Positions 2,701 through 21,855 of a stretch of 64,000 nucleotides of DNA are shown piece after piece. This DNA is from Octopus vulgaris. Taxonomy: Eukaryota. The translations under genes and the position numbers were made by a program. Within the stretch, counting starts at the first letter, position 1. Each line of letters begins with the position of its first letter. The stretch spans positions 93,620,001 to 93,684,000 of the forward strand of contig OX597817.1 in NCBI GenBank assembly GCA_951406725.2, in the 5' to 3' direction. Below the pieces are notes generated by a model. That model made no database searches, had not been told where the DNA came from, and saw nothing but the letters and a program-made list of their open reading frames with translations.

Positions 2701-4139
2701 TCTTCTTAATCTAGCTCATGGTAGATTGGCTTAATTTCGTTGCCAATATCAAAGAACAAATATCACGGAAAACAGTATAGTCCTGGAGATTTAATAAAGA
2801 GCTCATTATAAAATTCCAAGCACGTTACGAAATACGACAGGCAGCGAAGGCTGGAGGGTACAAGGTCCGAAACGTTCCTCTAACTTACCAGTGTCAGTGA
2901 ATAATTACATAAATAAATAAATAAAACGTGGTTTCTGATTTAGGCACAAGGCTAACAATTTTGAGAAGAGGGAGTTTAGTCGATACCATCGACAACATAT
3001 TAGTATTTATGAGTCGAGAGAAACACTTCGAGGAATGTGTAAGACACTTAATCCTGCCAACTCGCTACCCTTAGTAGCAGTAGCATAAAATTTACGCAAT
3101 GAATCTTATTAGGTGCCACAACATAACCGCACTCCAATGAGTGAAATAGTTAAAAAAAAAAACTGTTGGTCTGGGTCATAAAATCCGTTAATAATGTCTA
3201 GGGATTAATAAAATATATACTCACTTCTTCCAAACTTCTTCACATTTTAAGATACGAGTGTATAATTATTACATTTCAAACTTGCAAAATTGAAAAGGTC
3301 ATATCATTACAACACTAAAATCTGTCTTTATATTTATGGCTAACACATTTTCAATAAATGTTCGAAATGTGTGTGTGCGAATTAAATCTGTTGGATATAC
3401 AAAGCAATATATCTTACAAATGTATGCGTTAATGTCACTATAGTGCAGTGATATCGGATATAAGGAATAATTAAAAATGCAGTTAAGCATCTAAATATGC
3501 TGTAAACAACAGAGGTATTGAAATGTGTACGCAGACACTGTGTAGACTTCTGTTGAAAAATAAATTGGCAGAAACGCAATTTAAGGCAAGTACATTCGTT
3601 TATTCAATGGTATTCATAAGACTAATTGTTTCTTCCGAATATCGAAATCGGAAAGAAACATGATTAAATATTGAATAAAAAAATTCACACACATATCGTG
3701 ATTTAATTCAAAAGTCCATTTAGTGCGTGTGTGTTTGTATGTATATATAACAGCCGAGGGTAAAAGTAAGTGTAGCCAACTTTTTGTCACAATAAATATA
3801 TCTATCGACTCTGCTCAACAAACTGAGCTCCATATATGAGAATATATGTAGGGTACACAAGCACAAAGTCATGGGTTCGATTTCTGAAGTGGATGGTACA
3901 TTATGTCAATGAACAAGGCACTTTATCCCACACGCCTTAGTTTGCTCACATGTAATGAGAAACAGCCTGATGCAGGTGTACCCCCCCTTTTCTTCCCAAT
4001 TATCTTACCCTGAATGCTTCATTGTGTTAAGGATGGGAGTACCGAGGGAGGTGTCTATGCTTTTCGACTACATAAAACATGTTAGTGAATGATTAAATCA
4101 TATGGTAACTTGTTGCAGGAGAGAGGATTTTTGAACTGG

Positions 4140-4270
4140 CACAGTGCTTTTTTGTCAATATAGATAAGCTCGCCGGACCACGACGGCGCCAATATTGTCG
4201 GATGGTCTAATAGCGATGTCTTGCGTTTGTAGAATATCTGGAAGGTGTCGACTTTCGATTAAAAATTTTC
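4140..4270 (-). pseudogene. Degraded Penelope-like RT N-terminal fragment
   Basis: Minus-strand translation QDIAIRPSDNIGAVVV resembles the PLE RT motif IxIxPADKGGAVVV. Confidence 0.4.
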
Positions 4271-4961
4271 CGTACATCCGTTCTTAGTTCAATAATCCCA
4301 TTTTTATCCTTCAGCTCCTGTCTCACTTTAATTCCCCCTCCCCACCTCACATTGGCCGTTTCTCTCCCTCCTTTCATTTGTTTCCTTCTCCCTCTCTTGA
4401 TTAGTTTCTCCCTTCTGCTCCTTCATGTCTATGTATGCAATCTTATGTTGTGTTGCGTTTCCCGCTAGTTGCAGCCAGTTGTTTTAAAACAGAATGTAAA
4501 ACTCTGGACTCTGTCCGAAACGTTGGATACCCCACTCCACACGGTAATTTCATTGTACATTTTCTGCCCAAGTCTTGCCGACGCAGATCGCCACCAATTT
4601 CCTTGGATCCTGTAAAGCTTGTTTTTATGTTCAGTTATAATAAAAAACAATTTTACACTAATCTGATGGGTTAACTCTATACTTTTGTAGAGTACAAGTT
4701 TACTTATTTCTTTATTACCCACAAGGGGCCAACGAAGACGGGGACAATACATCATGATTTGGGGTCACGAGACACAAATGGAATTTACATAAAAAATGAG
4801 CTTTTAAAAATATTTACACAAAATCGAAAAAATCGAATGATACACTATGTTTTTAACAACAGCACGACATAAAAGGAACACATGAAGTGGGAACACCAGG
4901 ATTGCCGACCCCACGAGCCCTGTTTTTCCCACCGAAACTCGGCAGCCAACTTACAGCATGT

Positions 4962-7900
4962 TCACGTGGCCCCTTTCACTCGCAGCAATCGTGCCACACG
5001 TTTCCATATTTTTTCGAACTCACACGCAGACAGACACCTTTTCTCTAACTCCACCTTTCTTTTCAGGTGGAACCTGAAATAGGTCACCAAGGCGGAGCCA
5101 GAGATCATGGTGCCTGTCATTACCGCTTTCATTCTAGTCTTCCATATGCACTCTTTCGCTACTGCTACTGTACTGAGAAAGCAATGCTTACCTTCACTTG
5201 TCAAAAAGCTAGGCGAGTCAATTTTTATAATTGTCTCAGCCGATAGCTGTACTCTTCTTCCGTCCGACAACAGGTGTTCGGCATATACCCACACGTCCGA
5301 AACTTCCGGACACTGAACAATAGCGTGCGAGACTGTTTCCAGATCCCGCTCGCATCTTGGACAGCTCGATGGTCCACTCCAACCATGCCTTGTGAGTTTA
5401 TCCCGAACGGGTAAAGCCCCTCTGAAACATTGCCAGGTCAAAGACTTCTGGAAGTTATCCAGTGTCTTCGGCCCGAACGTCCTTCGGAACAGGCTGTCTA
5501 ACTGATTTCGATCGAGGCCCAAGGTCCTTCCTAAGGCATCGTCATTTCCGGCCTCTACCAACCTGCTATAGAAAGCTGCGGTGGTACCAAAGCCGCCGGC
5601 ATTGCCCGAGTTGCGGAAGTGGCAGAGTGCCTTACGGCACTCCGAATACCACATGCTCGATCTAAGTCTACGACGAAACCAGGTTTCTCTGCCACCGAAA
5701 CTGACAAAGCTGGGGAACATCTGCCTCGCAAGCGGGGACCACACCCGTTCACCATCCAGGTAGAGCCAAAGATGCCTTAACCTCAGCGCATGTCTGCGCA
5801 TCATCAGCCAAGGCATCCCTAAGCCACCCTTTAACGGTTTCTGACAGCAAATAGAACGTCTTACAAGAGGAGTGCTTCCCTTCCACAAAAAGCGGAAGAT
5901 CTGCCTCTCCAACTTGCTTAACCACGAATCCGGACAAGGGACGACGGTCAGGCGGTAGGTGATGACCGATGCTAAAAACACATTGGCCACCTCCGCCCTC
6001 CCTTTCAAGGATAGCCACCGTCCGGACCAAGTCCCGACCGCGTGAGCCACCTTGCCCGTCACCTCAGACCAGTTCTTTTCTATCTGGAGATCTGGACCAA
6101 ACCAGATCCCTAGCAGCTTAACCGGGCCCTCCGTCCAGCATCCCACGATGCTATTCGAAGGCATCGACTTGCCCCTCCAGGTGCCGAGTTGCAAGCCGAC
6201 CGATTTTTCCGGGTTAATCTTTGCTCCTGTCGCCGTCTCGTAAGCCTTGATGGCATCTCCCACATTACGTAGGAGTTCCACCTCGGTCACGATGATGGTG
6301 ATGTCGTCCGCATACGATGTCACAGATCCTCCACCTCCTGGATTCATCGGGATGGCGCTCAGCTTTCGCAGCAATGGCTCGAGAGCCATCACATACAAAA
6401 TCGGGGAGAGCGGACACCCTTGACGAACAGACTGTCTGATGCGGAACGGCTTCGAAAGGAAGCCGTTCACCCGAACGATCGAGTCGATGTTATCGTACAA
6501 TTGTATGATCCACCTGAGGAAGCCAACACCCAGACCGAACTGCGCCAGCACGGACACCAGGTACCGATGGTGCACCCTATCGAACGCTTTACTCTGGTCT
6601 AAATGGACCAATGCCCCACCTTTGCCAGAGTCATTCCCAAACCTCTCTATTGTGTAGCGTACTAGGTGAAGATTGTCCTGGATGGTTCTTCCAGGGACCG
6701 CACAAGTTTGTGCCTCCCCGATCAGACCACCCGCGACACGCGTCAACCTTTTCGCTAGCACCTTGGCCAAAATCTTCACCTCTGTGTTTAGCAGTGTGAT
6801 GGGCCGAAAGTTGTCTATGTTGTCCCCCTTGCTCGGGTCCTTTCTGATCAGCGTCACCACTCCCCGACGTACAGATCTGGGAATGAACCCATTCTGTCGC
6901 CAGTTCGCGAAGACTCCGGTCAGCACGTTCCCGAACAAGTCTGGCATTCTCTTATATAGCTCGTAAGGTAAACCATCAATCCCCGGCGCCCTGCCTTCAC
7001 CGCAGTCGACCAGGACCTCAGCTATCTCCTCAGGCGAGATCGACGCTTCACAGCTCTCCGCGTCCTGCCCCGTGAGGCGCGGCAACCCGGCGAGGATGTC
7101 CGTTAGGTCCACCCTCTCCTCCGGCCCGCCGTCGCCCCCAAAGAGCCGAGCGAAGTGCTCCTGAAACGTCCGACACATCTCCTCTGGTTCGGTGATCACA
7201 TCGCCTCGCCCGTTCGTCACAGACTTAATTGTGGAATCGTTTCCACGTTGAGCCTCCACAACTCGTGCCCATCCGGCAGCCCTGATACCCTCGCACCCCA
7301 TTGCGCGAATTCTAGCTCTGACGATGTTGGGCTTCGAGGTGCTGGTTCAACTCCAGTCTCTTCAGCCTAACTTGGGCCCCATCGCCAGCTCTCATGGCTT
7401 CCTCTAAGGCCTTAACTAGCCCCATCTCTTTCCTACGCCCACTAGTTGCTAGACCTATGCTGTATCTAATGGACTCGTATTTGATGGCTCTTTTGAGGGC
7501 GTACCACCATTTGTTGTTAATAATGGAACCGGTTAACGCCCTCTTCACTAATAACTCGATCCGGTTTCTGTACTCCTCAATAGCCAGAAGGGACTTATTG
7601 AGTTTCCAGTAGCCGGATCCCTTACTACCTAACTTATCTAGGTTCAGTTCGCCAGTGACCATCTTGTGATCGCTGTAACTGACCAGGTGAAACTGTGGAC
7701 ACTTAACTAATCCTTTATCTATTTTTCTAATAAAAATTCTGTCTATGTAGGACCTGACAGACCCGTCGCCACTTAACCACGTCCACTGTGGAGCGTTCGG
7801 GAATTCAAGTCTGTAGGGATCCACCAGCTGAAAGCGACTCAGTAGATCCCGGAAGCCAGGGTTTGGTTTTCTATCTTTTGAGCCAACGCCATCGACGCGC

Positions 7901-8337
7901 GCGTCGACTATGGCATTAAAGTCCCCTAGCATGACTATGGATTTTGACGTGCCAAGAAACTTCTCTAGGTCTCGATAAAAATCAGTCTGACCCGAATTAG
8001 GTGCGTATACCGCCACCAGCCTGATTTCTTTACCACAACTGAACGTCAGATCTAAGACGACCAGCCTACCTTCTGAATCAGAAAAAATCAACTTTTTCTC
8101 TGAGACACTATCTTTTTTAAGCAGGACCAACACCCCACTGCCGCCCACATGCCGTCCAGGAGAAATAAATTTCTCGTAGCCGTTCATGAGCGGGAGTAGA
8201 TCTCTTGGCCCTTCGATTCGTGTCTCAGTAGCTACAATTACATTTAAATTCCGCGCCCTGATATCGTTTAGTAAACGACCTTGTTTCCAGTTCGCTACCA
8301 GGGTGCGCACATTTATACAACCAACGTAAACAGCCAT
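4962..8337 (-). CDS. LINE ORF2: APE endonuclease (7312-8337) + reverse transcriptase (4962-7301), one frameshift near 7310
   Basis: APE motifs INVRTL, ETRI, VYAPN, GDFN, IDRIF, SDH, GYWKLN. RT motifs APGIDGLP, NFRPITLLN, DQSKAFDRV, QGCPLSP, YADD, LLGIW. C-terminal CPRC-x7-H-x4-C. Confidence 0.92.
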
Positions 8338-8344
8338 AGTTTGC

Positions 8345-9668
8345 TTACCTTATTTCCTCCGGGTCCGGCCGACGGGGGGGACCCGTCTCTTCTGCCTCCG
8401 AGGGCCGTGGAATCGGCGTACTGCTGTTCTTCTTTTCTACATCCTTCAGGGCATCCCCCTTGCTCATTCTGGATGGGCCTACGTCTTTTCTAAAATCATT
8501 TGCTAACGTGTTGAACCCTCTCAGTCCCATCACGTAGCATCTCCAGTCTCCACCTCTCACTTCCATCTCCACCTCCTCGGTGTGTTGTGTCTCCACTCTA
8601 CGCATCACTTCCCTGTTTGCGGTGTTCATCGCGACGTACACCCTATTTTCCCTCTCCGGCTTCTTCGCCTTCTTCACTTCTCTCTTCTCTTTACTTATGG
8701 TTTTCTCCGGGGAGGGGTTATTGTGTTTTCGCTTTGTAGCCGCAACCTGTGACCACCCCTCCCCTACTTCTGTTGCAGGTGTTGTTTCTATTGCCGCCAC
8801 TTGCGAACTTGGCTTTGTGGGTTCGCTCTTCTCCTTCTCTGCCGGCTTGCAGTCTTTCTTGATGTGGCCCTTCTTGCCACAGGTGAAACACCTGGGCTTC
8901 CGGCCCTCCACCATTACTGCCATCCGGCTCTCTCCTATCTCAATCACCTCGCCTATCTCTTCCAAGACGTCCGGCTCGGCCTGAATGATAATTTTTACTT
9001 TCTGTCCTTGCCACTTTTTGGCGTCTTCCACCGTGGCATCGCGAATCTCTATTTTTTCTTCCAGCCCTGCAGTGACTCCAGCCACTATTAGTTCGGGCTC
9101 AACCTCTGGCGGAATATTAGCAATCGTAATTCTTGAAATGCGCCTTCCTCTATAAATAGGTAGAAGGGTTACTGCCTCTGTTTTCAGGGGTTCCATAGAC
9201 TGCTCCCTTGCTTCTTCCTCTGTTTTGAACCTGGTTTCTCTTACCCCTGGTTAAAAATGTAATTTTTTCCCAGATGGGTTTTAAGCACGCCTCCACTTCC
9301 TTCTCCGAAGAAAAGTCTATTCTTCTTTCCTTATTTCTATAAGTTTTATATATTATTGTTTTTCTTTCTATCTCTTCGAGAGATTCTTTCGTCTGGTTCA
9401 GCTTAATTTTATATCCGTTTCGGGATACTATCTTTTTAACTTCGTCCAACTTGGTTAGGTTTATCTTTCTTTCTTTTGGACTCACCGCTTCAGCGAAGTT
9501 CAGCGCCTTCTTTGCCATGCTTGGCACATCCATATTTCTTCTGACTCGCCTACTTTCCTCTTCGTCCGAGGAAATGTCGGGCAAGGCTACTGTTCCTTCT
9601 AGGCTGGACATCTCTGGACTCAGGACCTGGGTTTGGTCTTCCGTTCTGTCCGCCTTCGGGCTGGCCAT
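8345..9668 (-). CDS. LINE ORF1 (gag-like nucleic-acid-binding protein with zinc knuckle), one frameshift near 9200-9240
   Basis: ORFs 9150-9698 and 8345-9196 overlap in different frames. Knuckle CFTCGKKGHIKKDC, RRM-like RITIANIPPEV segment and a Lys/Glu-rich tail. First ATG at 9668. Confidence 0.8.
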
Positions 9669-10125
9669 TATTGGCCTACCCCTCCTCAGCGGCTTCACTA
9701 AAATTAGTCAAATAAATTCGACTAAAAAAGACAACTTACTTTTTCTTTTGGGTTTTTTTTTTTTCTTTCACAAATAACAACTGGTAGTAGAATGTAGAGT
9801 ACAAGTTTGCTATTCTTAAACAAAAATGAATATGTATATATTTCACATTCGTTATTACATACATATTTAAGCACTTAACGTTTTCTCATGCAAAACCATT
9901 CATACGCAAATACACATACACATGTATGTCAACACACACACAAAATTCGTGAAAAACAGGAAACTTGCTAGGCAAGACTCAAGTTTTGTCAATAACCCTT
10001 TGTCCTTCAGGGATTTTTTCTCTTCTTTGCTTTGGATGGTTTTGTGCGTTTATAGGTAATGTATGTATAGCATCTGTGTTTGTATGTGTACATATTTATT
10101 TGAAATCTGGCCGAACATTTGTACT

Positions 10126-10395
10126 ATGACAGAACAGAAAGAAGTTAAAAGGCTAATGGAAGAGTATAAATGGTATGAAGTTGGTGAGACTAGGTATGCT
10201 GTGATTGAAAAGAAGAACATAGGTGAGTTTATGGGGAAGTGTGAAAGGGAGAATTGGGAGGTGAAAGATATAAGAATGAGCGATGAATTCGTGGAAAATA
10301 TGGAGGAGTATTTCGGAGTAAGAATGGATATGGATGGTCTTCGTATTGGGAAAGAACATTCAAGTGACTATGAAAAACAAAGGACAGGTAAGTGA
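10126..10395 (+). CDS. Small acidic ORF (89 aa) in unit 1 of the tandem retroposon
   Basis: MTEQKEVKRLMEEYKWYEVGETRY...RTGK; frame is conserved in unit 2. Confidence 0.5.
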   Translation: MTEQKEVKRLMEEYKWYEVGETRYAVIEKKNIGEFMGKCERENWEVKDIRMSDEFVENMEEYFGVRMDMDGLRIGKEHSSDYEKQRTGK

Positions 10396-10584
10396 TGCTG
10401 ACGGACGGGGCCGTTGGTATCGCTTTCATTTTATCATTTTTTTCGTTTAACAATTCATGTTCATAAAGTTTAATTATAATGTTCTATGTCCCCATGTTTT
10501 GTTATGTCCGCCATTCTTCGTAGCCCCTTAGTGGGTAATAAAGAAATCACATATTTATTTGAAATCTGGCCGAACATTTGTACT

Positions 10585-10851
10585 ATGACAGAACAGAAAG
10601 AAGTTAAAAGGCTAATGGAAGAGTATAAATGGTATGAAGTTGGTGAGACTAGGTATGCTGTGATTGAAAAGAACATAGATGAGTTTATGGTGAGGTGTGA
10701 AAGGGAGAATTGGGAGTCGAAAGATATAAGAATGAGCGATGAATTCGTGGAAAATATGGAGGAGTATTTCGGAGTAAGAATGGATATGGATGGTCTTCGT
10801 ATTGGGAAAGAACATTCAAGTGACGGTGAAAACCAAAGGACAGGTAAGTGA
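10585..10851 (+). CDS. Small acidic ORF (88 aa) in unit 2 of the tandem retroposon
   Basis: Paralog of 10126-10395 with an in-frame 3-nt deletion and the same stop position. Confidence 0.5.
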   Translation: MTEQKEVKRLMEEYKWYEVGETRYAVIEKNIDEFMVRCERENWESKDIRMSDEFVENMEEYFGVRMDMDGLRIGKEHSSDGENQRTGK

Positions 10852-11949
10852 TGCTAACGGATGGGGCCTTTAGCATCGCTTTCATATTATCATTTTTTTC
10901 ATGTAATAATTCATCCTTCATAAATTTAATTATAATGTTCTATGTCCCCATGTCTTGTGGTGTCCCCTCTGTGTCGCCCCTAGTGGGTAATAAAGAAAAA
11001 GTATGTGTACATGTTTTTGAAAGCATGAATATACGAGTACTGATGGCAGAAACATGCTCTTTTACCTACTTCTGTGTGCTGTATATACTAGTGACATATA
11101 GTGCAGTCTATGTATGCGAGTAATGCTCAAGCTATAAACTCATACTTTCAATGTAACTTGTGTTTATCGACGATATTGCATCCATTTATTTATGTGTGAG
11201 ACATATAAGGCTCATAATGCAGGTGTCTATGAAATATAACCATCCGTACATACATGAATATATATATATATACGTGTGTCACTTTGTATTTTATCTAGTG
11301 TCCGTCACGGCTGTGCTGAAGTATCGCTATTAAGAGTTTTAATCAAACGTATATCGATCCAGAACATATATTACCGGATTTGAATTTATCGAGTCGCTAA
11401 TTTGTAGCTGTGACATAAAAGGAAAAAAGAACCCAAATCTACTGTATATTCCTTGATTTCGAAAAACCATAAGATAGGTTTAACCTCAGAATCTTATTCT
11501 TCCAGAAATATCGAAATCAAATGACGAATGGGGCACTATCATAAAAGCTAGTGGTAATATTTGGAGTACTAAAAGCACCGCATTGAGTAGTTTTTGTTCC
11601 TGCTAATGTTGTCAGACATTGATAATTAATATACGATAAGCCACTCAGTTGTTATACAGACAACATTAAGGTGGTGCTAAAGAACAAGACGAACAGTGTT
11701 ATCAATGTATCCCAACTAGACTTTGACACTATATACAATAATATGTCGTTTAACGCCATGAGTATATTCGTGACCGAGCATTACTATATCTTGCAGATGC
11801 AGGTTTCTCTACAACACACACACACATATACGCTTATACACAAATACACATATTATATATACCATTTTTTGCTTTTTAGTTACCATCATGGTTTGAATTG
11901 AAGCACATATGTATACACACGCACGCACACACACAATATATATTATATA

Positions 11950-12151
11950 TGGAGTGGCTGTGTGGTAAGTAGCTTGCTTACGAACCACAGGGTTCCGGGT
12001 TTAGTCCCAGTGCGTGGCACCTTGCGCAAGTGTCTTCTACTATAGCCTCGGGCCGACCAAAGGCTTACAAAGAATAAGTCTTGCGGTCGATTTGCTCGAC
12101 TAAATGCGGTGCTCCAGCATGGCCGCAGTCAAATGACTGAAACAAGTAAAA

Positions 12152-12155
<4 letters not shown>
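11950..12155 (+). mobile_element. tRNA-derived SINE S1, internally deleted
   Basis: A-box-like tggctgtgtggtaag, ggttccgggtt, CORE-like ggcaccttgcgcaagtgtctt, then directly the tail gctccagcatggccgcagtcaaatgactgaaac. Confidence 0.8.
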
Positions 12156-12193
<38 letters not shown>

Positions 12194-12195
12194 GT

Positions 12196-13010
12196 TGGCG
12201 AACTGAAAAGTTCATAGGCTGATTATGAAGGGGTGGTGCTAGAGCAGTGAAATCTTGTATACATTAATTTCAACACTTATTATTAATAACTGCATTGTTT
12301 CTTTACATGTAAACGGACATCTGACTGCTCAAGAAAGATTTCAAAGGTAACTAGTAGCGACTTCTCTTGAAAATCGACATCATGTTGTTATCTTGGCATC
12401 GTGGTGTTATCAAGCACCTATAGGAAAAGGGTTTAGCCCCCAAGGATATTCATGCTGGGATAACGTTCCAGCTTTATCAACAGTACAAAAGTGGTAGCTG
12501 AATTTAGGAGGGGTCTTGAAGATGACCCAAGATCTGGATGTCCTGTAACTGTCACTATCAAGGAAAATATTGATCATGTTCACCACATGGATGACAGGCG
12601 ATCGACTATAAATAGTCAATGCTTTTAGCATACCTCGTGAGAAGGTTGAAAAAATTCTGCTCAATGACCTTAGCATGACGAAGGTTTCTGCTCGGTGAGT
12701 GCTGGGAAAATCTGACATTGTTTGAGACAGATCCCGCTGGTTTCCTTCAATGTTTCCTCACCCATGATGAACGTTGGTTTCATCACTTTGAGCCACAGAC
12801 AAAGAGACAATCCATGCAGTGGAAACACTCCTCGTTACCTGCTCCATAGAAGACCATGGTCGTTTCATCTGTAGGGGAGACGATGGCTTCAGTTTGGGGG
12901 ATGCAAAAGGCATTGTGTTTATTATTGCCTATCTTCAAAAGTGCCACACTATCGATGGAGAATACTATGCCAACATGCTGAAGCAATTCTAAAAAGGACA
13001 TCTTGGCCAA
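12196..13010 (+). mobile_element. Degraded mariner-type DNA transposon (5' part)
   Basis: Starts with ctgaaaagttcataggctga, the same TIR as at 54968. Collinear with the copy at 54963-56176 and interrupted by a SINE at ~13010. Confidence 0.75.
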
Positions 13011-16752: not shown

Positions 16753-17122
16753 ATTTCATCCTGCTCTTTTCATATTTTTAAGCGTTTTGTTTGGATAGCT
16801 TGATCTGTTCTCCCTTCGTTCCCCTATTCTCTAAACATGGCGACTTCATGCATTGCATTTTTAAAGTTTATTTTCCTTCAGGGCCATCTTCGATGTTTAT
16901 CCATTCTCCTCCGAAATATGCCCCCTCGTCTCTTACCGTATCTTTTTCATTATTTATCTATTCTCATTCTCTACCGTATTTTTTTCATTATTTATCTATT
17001 TCCATTCTCTACCGTATTTTTTATTATTTATCTATTTTCATTCTCTCTCTGGCTTTCATTCAGTCATTTATCTAATTAATTATTTTTCCCCCTCAAATAT
17101 AGTATTCAAACTAGTTGCTTCG

Positions 17123-17163
<41 letters not shown>

Positions 17164-17653
17164 TTTCCGTCCCCTTCCCTAATTCCCTTATAAAAGCCAG
17201 CGTGCGATCGTATCTGATCCCTATTCACTCGCTACACCTTCAAAGAAAACACAGACTTCCAAAAATGGCCAGCTAAGTCAATTTCATCCTGCTCTTTTCA
17301 TATTTTTAAGCGTTTTGTTTGGATAGCTTGATCTGTTCTCCCTTCGTTCCCCTATTCTCTAAACATGGCGACTTCATGCATTGCATTTTTAAAGTTTATT
17401 TTCCTTCAGGGCCATCTTCGATGTTTATCCATTCTCCTCCGAAATATGCCCCCTCGTCTCTTACCGTATCTTTTTCATTATTTATCTATTCTCATTCTCT
17501 ACCGTATTTTTTTCATTATTTATCTATTTCCATTCTCTACCGTATTTTTTATTATTTATCTATTTTCATTCTCTCTCTGGCTTTCATTCAGTCATTTATC
17601 TAATTAATTATTTTTCCCCCTCAAATATAGTATTCAAACTAGTTGCTTCGATT
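16753..17653 (+). repeat. Near-identical 373-bp direct repeats (period 528) upstream of the RTE ORF, separated by (TC)n and a TATA module
   Basis: 16753-17125 matches 17281-17653; the ORF track gives identical peptides 528 bp apart. Confidence 0.9.
17189..17230 (+). promoter_or_regulatory. Candidate Pol II core promoter (TATAAAA + Inr-like TCACTC)
   Basis: TATAAAAG at 17189, ttcactc at 17224-17230, (TC)n GAGA-type tract upstream. Confidence 0.4.
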
Positions 17654-17803: not shown

Positions 17804-20800
17804 ATGAAATCTGCCAAATGCAAGCTTTCTTTTCAGGTACATGACACTGCTGTCCCTCGTCCCAGGGTCTCTGATGCCCACACCTCCCAAACCCTCAGAG
17901 TTGGCACGCTCAACGTTGGCACATTGAAAGGTAGGTCTGGAGAGATTGTAGAGCTGCTTGAACGGAGACGTGTGGATGTATGCTGTATCCAGGAAGTAAG
18001 GTGGAGAGGAGGTTCTGCTAGGCTCCTCACGGGCAAGGAACACAGGTACAAGATTTTCTGGGCAGGGAACATTGACGGTGTCGGGGGCGTGGGTATACTT
18101 CTTGCGGAGAAATGGATAGGTAAGGTAATCGAGGTAGTCAGAATAAGTGACAGAGTAATTAAAATTAGATTAGTTCTTCACCATAGGACAGCTACCATCA
18201 TCTCGGCATATGCCCCTCAACCAGGGCTACCGGAAGGACAAAAAGACCAATTCTATGACACCCTATTGCGGACTACCTCATTGACAAATGACAGTGACCT
18301 TCTCTTCGTGGCAGGTGATTTCAATGGACATGTTGGACGACATGTCAGGGGCTTCCATGGCATCCATGGAGGCCACGGTTTTGGCTCTCGAAATGAGGAG
18401 GGAACCAGGCTGCTGGAGTTCTGCGATGCAAATGACCTTATGGTCTGCAATACCCACTTCAGGAAACCCACCTCTCACCTAGTCACCTACCGTTCTGGCA
18501 GACACACCAGCCAGATTGACTACATCCTTGCCAGAAAAAGGGAAAGAGGGCTGATTATAAATGCCAAAACCTTCCCAGGCGAAGAATGTACTCCCCAACA
18601 TAGATTAGTAGTTAGCGACTTCAGGATCAGAGCTAAATGGTCGCCCAGAAGAAGACCAGCTTGGAGGAGAAGGGTCTGGAAGCTTAAAGATCCTGCAAAT
18701 GCACAGAGATTTAGAGACATACTACTCGAAGCCTCTGACGAAATAGAAGGGGATATAGCTTCACTTAATGTGGAAGACAACTGGAGATTCCTACGGGACA
18801 ATCTGCTGACAGCCACTGACCAGATCTGTGGATGGAGCAAAGTACCATCTCGACCCAGAGTAACATGGTGGTGGAACACGGTGGTTGACGGGGCTATTAG
18901 ACAAAAGAGACAGGCTTGGAAGGACTGGAAGAACGGTGGTAGCAGGGAATTGTATCAGACAGCCAAAAGGGAAGCTAGGAGACAGGTTTATATAGCCAGA
19001 GGGGAAGCGGATAAGAAAAAATTTGCCAATGTTCTGAGCCGTGAGGATGAAAGACTTGAGGTATTTCGTGTTGCAAGACAGTGTGTGAGAGAGAATCGTG
19101 ATGTGGTAGGAGAGAAGTGTGTTCGCATGGATGATGGTTCACTTGCGCTAAATGAGGATGCAAAGAGAGAGGTTTGGAGATGCCACTATGAAAGTTTGCT
19201 GAATAAAGAAAATGAATGGGATAAAGAGAGTCTGCCAAATGTTGACCCAACAGAGGGGCCAGCTATCCGAGTTGATAGTTCCGTGGTAGCTAAGGCAATT
19301 AGAAGCATGAAGACAGGGAAAGCCCCAGGCCCATCAGGAATTACTGCAGAGATGCTCAAAATATCTGGCAGTGTCGGCTATAACCTAGTCACCCGTATAG
19401 TCAACCAGGTGATACACGAAGGAGTCATACCCAATGACTGGTGTAGCAGCATACTAGTCAACTGCTACAAAGGTAAAGGTGATGCCCTGGATACAAATAA
19501 TTACAGAGGTATCAAGCTGTTGGATCAGGTAATGAAGGTTACGGAGAGGGTCTTAGCCCAACTAATTAGAGAGAGAGTTAGTTTAGATGAGATGCAGTTT
19601 GGGTTTGTCCCAGGGAAAAGCACCACTGATGCTATATTCCTGGTAAGGCAGCTGCAGGAGAAATACCTAGCCAAGGATAAGCCCCTGTACCTGGCTTTTG
19701 TTGACATGGAGAAAGCCTTTGATAGGGTCCCCCGATCCCTCATCTGGTGGTCAATGAGGAAACTAGGGATAGATGAATGGCTGGTGAGGGCTGTGCAAGC
19801 CATGTACAGAGATGCCGTAAGTAAGGTTAGAGTTGGCAACATGTACACAGAAGAATTCAAAGTAGAGGTTGGGGTCCACCAGGGTTCAGTACTCAGCCCC
19901 CTCCTATTTATCATAGTCCTCCAGGCAATAACGGAGGAATTCAAGACAGGTTGCCCCTGGGAGCTCCTCTATGCTGACGACCTCGCTCTAATCGCTGAGT
20001 CACTATCAGAACTGGAGGAGAAGTTCCAGGTGTGGAAGGAGGGTTTAGAATCGAGGGGCCTTAGAGTCAACCTAGCTAAAACCAAAGTACTAATAAGTAG
20101 AAAGGTAGAAAACCCACAAATATCATCAGGAAGATGGCCCTGCTCGATCTGTAGAAAAGGTGTAGGTAGAAACTCTATAAGATGTACCCAGTGTAAGCTA
20201 TGGACACATAAGAGGTGCAGCAATGTCAAAGGTAGGCTAACTGGGAAGATAGTTTTTGTATGTGGCAGGTGCTCTGGAGCACTGACCTCCGAAAATCTGC
20301 AGAAAACAACTTCTGTCACTTTCCGGGGGAAAAACTAGAAGTAGTTGATAGTTTCCGCTATCTAGGTGACCAAGTCAGTAGTGGGGGTGGGTGCGCTGAA
20401 AGTGTAACTGCTAGAATAAGAATAGCCTGGGCAAAGTTTAGGAGCTCTTACCTCTGCTGGTGACTAAAGGCCTCTCGCTCAGAGTAAAAGGCAGACTGTA
20501 TGATGCATGTGTACGAACAGCTATGCTACATGGCAGTGAAACATGGGCCGTGACTGCTGAGGACATGCGTAAGCTCGTGAGGAACGAAGCCAGTATGCTC
20601 CGATGGATGTGTAATGTCAGTGTACTTACTCGACAGAGCGTTAGTACCTTGAGAGAAATGTTGTACCTAAGAAGCATCAGTTGTTGTGTGCAAGAGAGAC
20701 GATTGCGCTGGTATGGTCATGTGGCGAGAATGGATGAAGAGAGGTGTGTGAGAAAGTGCCAATCCCTAGCAGTTGAGGGAACCCGTGGAAGAGGTAGACC

Positions 20801-21104: not shown

Positions 21105-21560
21105 TGGCACATAAGAAAACCATCCGAACGTGACCGTAGCCAGTACCGCAATGACTGGCCTCCGTGCTGAGGGCACGTAACAAACACCATCCGAGCATGG
21201 CCGTCCGCCAGCCTCGTCTAGCACCTGTGTCGGTGACACATAAGAAAACACCATCCGAGCGTGGCCGTCTGCCAGCCTCGTCTGGCACCTGTGTCGGTGG
21301 CACATAAAAAACACCATCCGAGCGTGGCCGTCTGCCAGCCTCGTCTGGCACCTGTGTCGGTGGCACATAAAAAACACCATCCGAGCGTGGCCGTCTGCCA
21401 GCCTCGTCTGGCACCTGTGTCGGTGGCACATAAAAAACACCATCCGAGCGTGGCCGTCTGCCAGCCTCGTCTGGCACCTGTGTCGGTGGCACATAAAAAA
21501 CACCATCCGAGCGTGGCCGTCTGCCAGCCTCGTCTGGCACCTGTGTCGGTGGCACATAAA
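21105..21560 (+). repeat. 63-bp GC-rich tandem array in the RTE 3'UTR
   Basis: Unit cacataaaaaacaccatccgagcgtggccgtctgccagcctcgtctggcacctgtgtcggtgg starts at ~21238, 21301, 21364, 21427 and 21490, with diverged units at ~21109 and 21175. Confidence 0.95.
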
Positions 21561-21855
21561 ATCACCCACTACACTCTCGGAGTGGTTGGCGTTAGGAAGG
21601 GCATCCAGCTGTAGAAACACTGCCACATCTGACTGGCCTGGTGCAGCCTTCGGGCTTCCCAGACCCCAGTTGAACCGTCCAACCCATGCTAGCATGGAAA
21701 GCGGACGTTAAACGATGATGATGATGATGATGATGATTGATAAGGGGAGAAGGTGAGTAAGACTGGGTGAATAATGAAGAGAAAATAGTAGCTGGAGAAT
21801 TAATATGAACATAATGGTGAGGAGAGACCCAAATATAGACATGCATTTTGATTTT

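Follow-up and report, generated by a model that had tools for sequence, protein, structure and literature searches.

A dispersed ~460-nt retroposon family of Octopus vulgaris with a LINE-like 3' tail and an open reading frame of 88–89 codons

What kind of element is the tandem pair of short repeats that lies beside a full-length LINE on contig OX597817.1 of Octopus vulgaris, and does the small open reading frame (ORF) in each repeat play a part in its spread? The locus falls in a 64,000-nt stretch of DNA (the window; positions 93,620,001 to 93,684,000 of the contig), for which the original prediction was a non-autonomous, multimeric partner of the neighbouring LINE that borrows its 3' tail and encodes a stand-alone domain derived from LINE ORF1, possibly a helper or an inhibitor of the LINE particle.

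The predicted arrangement of two tandem units, with the same 5' start and an ORF of 88–89 codons in each, was confirmed by alignment and by the ORF coordinates (Table 1). The units begin at the same base, are 92.6% identical over 458 alignment columns and have identical first 120 nt; TRF on the dimer gave a period of 456 and 2.0 copies. A length of 459 bp had been given for both units, which is correct for unit 1; unit 2 is ~452 bp long. The ORF of unit 2 differs from that of unit 1 by six non-synonymous codons, no synonymous codon and one in-frame codon deletion, and the 3' untranslated region (UTR) of each unit, ~150 nt long and T-rich, terminates in GGGTAATAAAGAAA. Six-frame translation and a Pfam scan found no reverse transcriptase (RT) or endonuclease in the unit and there is no tRNA in the window, in agreement with the prediction of an element with neither an RT nor a tRNA head. 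The pair was also said to be enclosed by a single 12-bp target site duplication (TSD). A direct repeat, GTATGTGTACAT at 10082 and 11001, does enclose it, of which 6 of the 12 bp are unambiguous: the last 4 nt are also the element head (ACAT), and the first 2 nt may belong to the tail, since TA(A/G)GT is the ending both of the LINE and of other copies. Because the ends of the repeat overlap the element head and tail, the TSD of the dimer is put at 6–12 bp.

Table 1. Positions of the features at the locus and elsewhere in the window.
Feature	Position	Strand	Remarks
Unit 1 of mini-retroposon	10090..10548	+	459 bp: 36-nt head, ORF, 3' UTR, tail ending GAAAT plus one extra C
Unit 2 of mini-retroposon	10549..~11000	+	~452 bp; abuts unit 1 tail, no TSD between
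ORF of unit 1	10126..10395	+	89 aa; A/G-rich, 6% C; no Pfam or PDB match
ORF of unit 2	10585..10851	+	88 aa
LINE-like tail of unit 1	10505..10547	+	AATAAA at 10537
LINE-like tail of unit 2	10961..11003	+	stretch on its own also common to other repeat families
Left direct-repeat copy (TSD)	10082..10093	+	12 bp; 6-bp core unambiguous; last 4 nt overlap element head
Right direct-repeat copy (TSD)	11001..11012	+	junction found unchanged in run X9, record 31
Splice-donor-like AG/GTAAGT	10386..10393	+	end of unit 1 ORF; public gene models join ORF to downstream exons here
Adjacent full-length L1/Tx1-group LINE	4702..9792	-	ORF1 with CCHC knuckle, APE, RT plus zf-RVT
LINE ORF1 in two frames	9150-9668, 8345-9196	-	CCHC knuckle
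LINE APE	7312-8337	-
LINE RT plus zf-RVT (APE and RT in two frames)	4962-7301	-
LINE 3' tail matching mini-element tails	4702..4746	-
APE-RT LINE ORF	17804-20338		844 codons
Exact duplication, 528-bp-spaced	16753-17580		just upstream of the 844-codon ORF
63-bp six-copy array	21172-21561		downstream of the 844-codon ORF

The adjacent LINE has APE and RT domains, two ORFs and a CCHC-type ORF1, and its RT is, among solved proteins, nearest to L1 ORF2p (E = 4e-51; R2, E = 1e-24). It is assigned to the L1/Tx1 group by these features and by its closest solved RT, the label Tx1 itself being presumptive. As assembled it has frame breaks in ORF1 (9150-9196) and ORF2 (7301-7337), through decay or sequencing error. 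The LINE is flanked by a 16-bp TSD of its own, at 4686 and 9793, and the dimer lies ~280 bp away, head to head with it; since the LINE has its own TSD, the two are regarded as separate insertions. The TSDs of both insertions (4686-4701 and 9793-9808; 10082-10093) contain GTAC, and at this short distance a target preference is possibly shared.

The tails of both units align to the 3' end of this LINE (minus strand, 4706-4746; blastn within the window, E = 4e-6 and 5e-5). Their local scores were 50 and 52, and 2000 shuffles per unit gave maxima of 26 and 29; as none of the shuffles reached the score of either unit, the predicted match of the 3' end to the terminal ~45 nt of the LINE holds. Upstream of these last ~45 nt the similarity of the 3' UTR to the LINE is at chance level (p = 0.28 and 0.30), homology over the whole UTR was rejected (p about 0.3), and by blastn the head of the unit has no match to the neighbouring LINE. 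Because just the terminal ~45 nt are in common, the adjacent LINE may be a relative of the partner LINE and not the partner itself.

The only Rfam match in 3500-12500 is an AT-repeat outside the unit, no pol III A or B box was matched in unit 1, and runs of T4–T7 precede the tail. Given these results and the lack of a tRNA, the unit is not a pol III SINE.

The pair belongs to a family that is dispersed, multicopy, fixed in its 5' start and often multimeric, as had been proposed. The unit is carried by 123 of the 151 public proteins retrieved, every named one of which is an O. vulgaris gene model; a manual count from the protein tables places the carriers on 21 contigs of >40 Mb and on 2 smaller ones. 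Protein searches gave 33 matches of similar length and 20 longer ones, all O. vulgaris gene models; an exhaustive HMMER search of 1.84 billion representatives returned 30 matches, all of the same family and including members at 51–60% identity, with no homolog outside it. Among the 124 carriers (the 123 public proteins and the window's own; 152 proteins examined) 86 have one unit, 35 have two, 2 have three and 1 has four, i.e. 38 of 124 carry two to four units. First and second unit are unlike in 21 of 26 comparable multimer models (3 of 29 were left out because of offset alignments); these multimers are known from gene models, which do not prove that the units are adjacent in the genome. Gene model P0058 contains both ORFs of the window letter for letter. 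Local tandem duplication of unique DNA was rejected as an explanation by the dispersal of the family; and a host gene family by the TSD, the LINE tail and the arbitrary downstream exons in the gene models.

Sequencing runs gave a comparable picture. The unit was found in 20 runs under three organism labels, none of them recorded as RNA, and four runs, three of DNA type (organisms A, B and C) and one guessed to be RNA, were mapped as contigs on 10500-11200. Element depth was 10^3–10^5 in the three DNA-type runs and that of the unique flank was 6.8 in run X9, a ratio which is a hint of hundreds of copies in X9 and not a copy number; in X1, X3 and X6 the unique flank had no coverage, an observation of no evidential weight. 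The tail is left at 10998 by 21 contigs in X3 and 23 in X6, which pass into unlike flanks (agreement 0.47 and 0.44) that begin TA(A/G)GT, as the end of the LINE does. A tail-to-head junction was present in run X1 (record 1), and in X3 a tail was joined to a 5'-truncated unit. No empty-site allele was listed in the four runs, and one TSD, that of this locus, was readable. In each DNA run 15–23 contigs join at 10961 with different upstream sequence, which indicates that the tail is common to several families. Depth also rises at ~10836, the point from which contigs in X1, X3 and X6 match the UTR; what precedes it in these contigs is other, purine-rich DNA, and this 3' UTR (10836-10998) may serve other cargo as well.

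Sequences of the latter type, which have the whole 3' UTR with other purine-rich DNA upstream, would also be expected if the unit were the 3' part of a longer LINE or of an ORF1-only element, repeatedly cut or truncated at one position; and several contigs extend 39–88 nt upstream of 10568 unaligned. This explanation is nevertheless highly improbable. Both units start at the same base, one flush with the TSD and the other with the previous tail; the first profile position is also the start of 134 of 166 matched units, and a few head types recur among downstream units in multimers; in X9 one contig has a CA-repeat flank directly before a head. No longer parent was found either, there being no protein among the 20 longer and 30 exhaustive matches that ends an ORF1 or ORF2 with the unit. 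Fixed starts and the lack of any such protein together make a truncated LINE end unlikely. The outcomes named beforehand as contrary to the original prediction were a unit unique in the genome, a unit forming the 3' end of a longer LINE and an ORF not conserved in other copies; none of the three was found.

The ~460-nt family is considered real and apparently undescribed. No description of it came up in full-text literature searches; a curated O. vulgaris repeat library (PMC13282606), which is deposited separately, may contain the unit. According to the available text of that source, the library includes 893 unclassified recently active SINE families as well as unknown repeats, and the unit may be among either; 13 recently active L1-Tx1 families are reported for O. 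vulgaris, and 80 families in all.

On the sequence evidence, the best reading of the family is as a non-autonomous retroposon mobilised in trans by a LINE of the L1/Tx1 group. Our preferred explanation, to which we give a probability of roughly 0.45, is that the RT-less ~460-nt elements are likely copied by the ORF2 protein of such a LINE and that the ORF is likely kept open since its translation helps the element's own RNA to mobilise. The element would first be transcribed by pol II or by read-through, as there is no tRNA head, the T-runs would stop pol III and AATAAA is present at the 3' end. Target-primed insertion of an RNA recognised by a LINE is established non-LTR biology, and in the second step the last ~45 nt would be recognised by the LINE ORF2 protein, whose target-primed reverse transcription of the RNA would create the new insertion with its short TSD. 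A tail in common with the partner LINE is described for non-autonomous elements in the available text of PMC4494074. Multimers of unlike units within one TSD would be made either from a multimeric transcript or by an RT that, having reached the 5' end of one RNA, continues on the tail of the next; template jumps of this sort are described (PMC3414825, available text). Given that the units are unlike, that one TSD encloses them, that none lies at the junction and that one extra base is found there, a template jump or dimeric transcript fits the dimer better than sequential, TSD-sandwiching insertions of the SINEU-3 type. A template jump leaves unaccounted for the identity of the units over their first 120 nt, which suggests conversion or a shared master.

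The evidence that the ORF is coding is mixed. When unit 1 was shuffled 5000 times and the three plus-strand frames were read, 0.14% of the shuffles contained an ATG-to-stop frame of at least 88 codons. Between the two units, 8 of 267 nt are different in the ORF and 17 of 146 in the UTRs (p = 0.0008). Among the 12 indels listed of 27, 11 are of frameshift size and all lie outside the ORF, the one within it being in-frame (p = 0.0015 under uniform expectation), a contrast to be read with the homopolymer-rich UTR in mind, which raises its indel rate. The frame is also open in four divergent members, at 76, 60, 60 and 51% identity, where neutral simulation predicted a stop in about 75–94% of runs per member; the gene predictor, however, pre-selects open frames in gene models, so that this comparison carries an ascertainment bias. 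Minus-strand and alternative-frame ORFs were rejected, the frame concerned being open, for 78 codons, in unit 2 only. In the one run guessed to be RNA, the unit is covered by contigs and the flank is uncovered.

At the level of residues the result was different. For 40 of the 95 variant rows, the 23 run variants in the ORF comprised 16 replacement and 3 silent codons, a pN/pS of about 1.07 on the assumption that neighbouring variants are in phase, and the purifying selection on amino acids that a dN/dS check across copies might have shown was not borne out. Substitutions in the four divergent members were no more conservative than in neutral simulation (p = 0.23–0.68). None of the 23 variants introduces a stop, which has a probability of 0.26 under neutrality. 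The reading frame thus looks constrained by these comparisons and the residues do not.

A pN/pS of about 1 and a neutral-like substitution spectrum are what would be expected of an incidental ORF, in which case the element would be mobilised in the same way as a non-coding passenger resembling Sadhu or SVA, its purine-rich, C-poor body being open by chance in a few recently amplified masters. Consistent with this, the peptide has no homolog outside the family among the 1.84 billion representatives, its predicted fold has a pLDDT of 55, and it is carried solely by ab initio 'hypothetical' models. This account must set against these points a frame that is open at 51–76% identity despite the stops expected (ascertainment uncorrected), listed indels that avoid the ORF and the rarity of such a frame in shuffles, and we consider it rather unlikely. 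Under the preferred explanation, of an ORF kept open for the benefit of its own RNA, selection would act on the frame more than on the residues; and because selection on the frame exceeds that on the residues, the product would most likely be a fast-evolving orphan protein accessory in cis, and not a conserved ORF1 fragment.

The descent of the peptide from the C-terminus of LINE ORF1, a central part of the original prediction, found no backing in the comparisons made. The best BLASTP match had an E-value of 0.075 and did not lie at the C-terminus; hhalign probabilities were 0.46% and 0.09%; 12 shuffle tests all stayed above p = 0.05, the lowest being 0.062; no intact LINE ORF1 was present among the 30 exhaustive HMMER matches; and the three motif matches to the ORF1 C-terminus seen by eye were recovered by no tool. 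The comparison set consisted of ORF1 proteins of related Octopus families and three C-terminal domains, with shallow profiles (Neff 1.2–1.8), and a comparison of two Octopus Tx1-like ORF1 C-terminal domains with each other was likewise negative (hhalign 0.13%); for both reasons the homology tests are weak. By AlphaFold, the ORF1 domain of the window is predicted as β-α-β-β-α-β-α (pLDDT 84; best matches ferredoxin/RRM-like, Z up to 5.8) and the peptide as α-β-β-α-β-α-β (pLDDT 55). The two predicted folds are loosely compatible, in an order of elements that is common. An ORF1 origin of the peptide is therefore considered unsupported by sequence comparison.

Other searches with the peptide gave no relative. 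The best Pfam match was Ephrin (E = 0.04, below the cut-off), matches to PDB sequences had E-values of 1.7 or worse, and the ESM atlas gave no usable match for the peptide, nor for a Tx1-like ORF1 C-terminal domain; with an atlas recognition value of 2065, the peptide falls short of what known families typically reach. With the peptide model, Foldseek found nothing at E ≤ 0.001 and the best VIA-align match had a Z of 4.2, neither result showing a new fold. None of 76 pattern matches in a metagenome scan was confirmed. When the peptide was modelled as a complex with one ORF1 C-terminal domain, without alignments, the score was 0.00, which counts neither for nor against an interaction.

These data also bear on whether the unit is a minimal HAL1-like element, whose peptide would be a diverged C-terminal domain of Tx1 ORF1 that co-assembles with ORF1p as a helper or a dominant-negative inhibitor. 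The predicted order of elements would be compatible, the ORF is purine-rich like ORF1, and homology could lie below detection given that ORF1 C-terminal domains are too diverged to match one another; moreover, a Tx1-type ORF1 follows the unit in 7 of 124 models, and HAL1, HeT-A and Ag-Sponge are precedents (PMC5786205, available text). Against this, no sequence or profile match to the three ORF1 C-terminal domains was significant, no ORF1 with a C-terminal unit occurred among the 20 longer or 30 exhaustive matches, and a pN/pS of about 1 is unexpected for a domain that docks on ORF1p. We consider a helper or inhibitor of this descent unlikely.

At the end of the unit 2 ORF there is likewise a consensus splice donor (10842-10849), and it is through this predicted donor that many unrelated exons are attached to the ORF in gene models. 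A broader and doubtful reading of the family is as miniature coding LINE satellites, whose tail would hijack a Tx1-type RT and whose units would form mixed head-to-tail arrays; the orphan 89-aa protein would steer the LINE machinery to its own RNA or poison the LINE particle, and the strong splice donor would fuse the domain to host transcripts.

Several described elements share features with the mini-element. HAL1 (half-L1), HeT-A and Ag-Sponge are, like it, RT-less with one ORF and a LINE-type 3' end, and presumably have a pol II transcript that is mobilised in trans; in the available text of the sources they encode an ORF1p-type protein and retain parts of both the 5' and the 3' region of their parent LINE (PMC5786205; PMC5753468), whereas the mini-element is of 460 nt, with an 89-aa ORF, no zinc knuckle, no detectable ORF1 homology and a LINE match of ~45 nt. 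SINEU of crocodilians is a short non-autonomous partner of Tx1-clade LINEs, as the mini-element is presumed to be, and often tandem, with heads from U1/U2 snRNA and tandem copies that sandwich a TSD (PMC4494074, available text); the mini-element differs from it in that no Rfam family matches the unit, an ORF follows the head and adjoining units are not separated by a TSD. Sadhu of Arabidopsis and SVA of primates similarly combine an unrelated body with a LINE-dependent 3' end and no pol III head. In the accounts available, however, Sadhu is non-coding and SVA is a composite of 2 kb, in contrast to the 89-codon frame of the mini-element, open across subfamilies, and its multimers. Finally, R2/R1 SIDEs and bipartite non-autonomous LINEs (Bov-A type) are short pol II-type passengers that keep the 3' recognition sequence of their partner, and for these template jumps are documented (PMC3414825, available text). 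Elements of the SIDE/Bov-A type are, in the same partial accounts, non-coding 5'+3' fusions from the RTE, Ingi, Vingi and R2 clades, whereas the body of the mini-element is an ORF and its 5' end gave no match to the neighbouring LINE.

ORF1p is the product of the protein-coding non-autonomous LINE partners described in the available text of PMC5786205 and PMC5753468 (HAL1, HeT-A, Ag-Sponge); an element of SINE size whose protein is minimal or unrelated would, if true, widen what a LINE parasite can carry. It would also provide a small, testable handle on the competition of passengers for ORF2p. For annotation, at least 123 O. vulgaris 'hypothetical protein' gene models are repeat-derived and not a lineage-specific gene family. 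They include chimeras with a CFAP65-like gene (P0071, with the unit at its end) and with other transposon ORFs.

The seven models in which the unit is spliced to a downstream Tx1-type ORF1 (P0054, P0070, P0074, P0075, P0145, P0146 and P0152) involve ORF1s of other families. Accession numbers of mini-element models and of those ORF1s are often neighbouring, which could reflect mixed arrays or the predictor's liking for open transposon frames. One Tx1-type ORF1 family occurs in consecutive gene models (P0120, P0131-P0134 and P0141) with no ORF2 model among those listed; this may be an ORF1-only, HAL1-like family in tandem, or the ORF2 models may have been removed by filtering. In P0072, P0084, P0095, P0113 and P0114 the unit is joined to the same downstream helix-turn-helix exon, which we take to be Tc1-like, and a target preference for a DNA transposon, as of SINEU for Mariner-N4, is possible. 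Elsewhere in the window, the 844-codon APE-RT ORF, presumably RTE-like, lies between an exact duplication and a six-copy array (Table 1).
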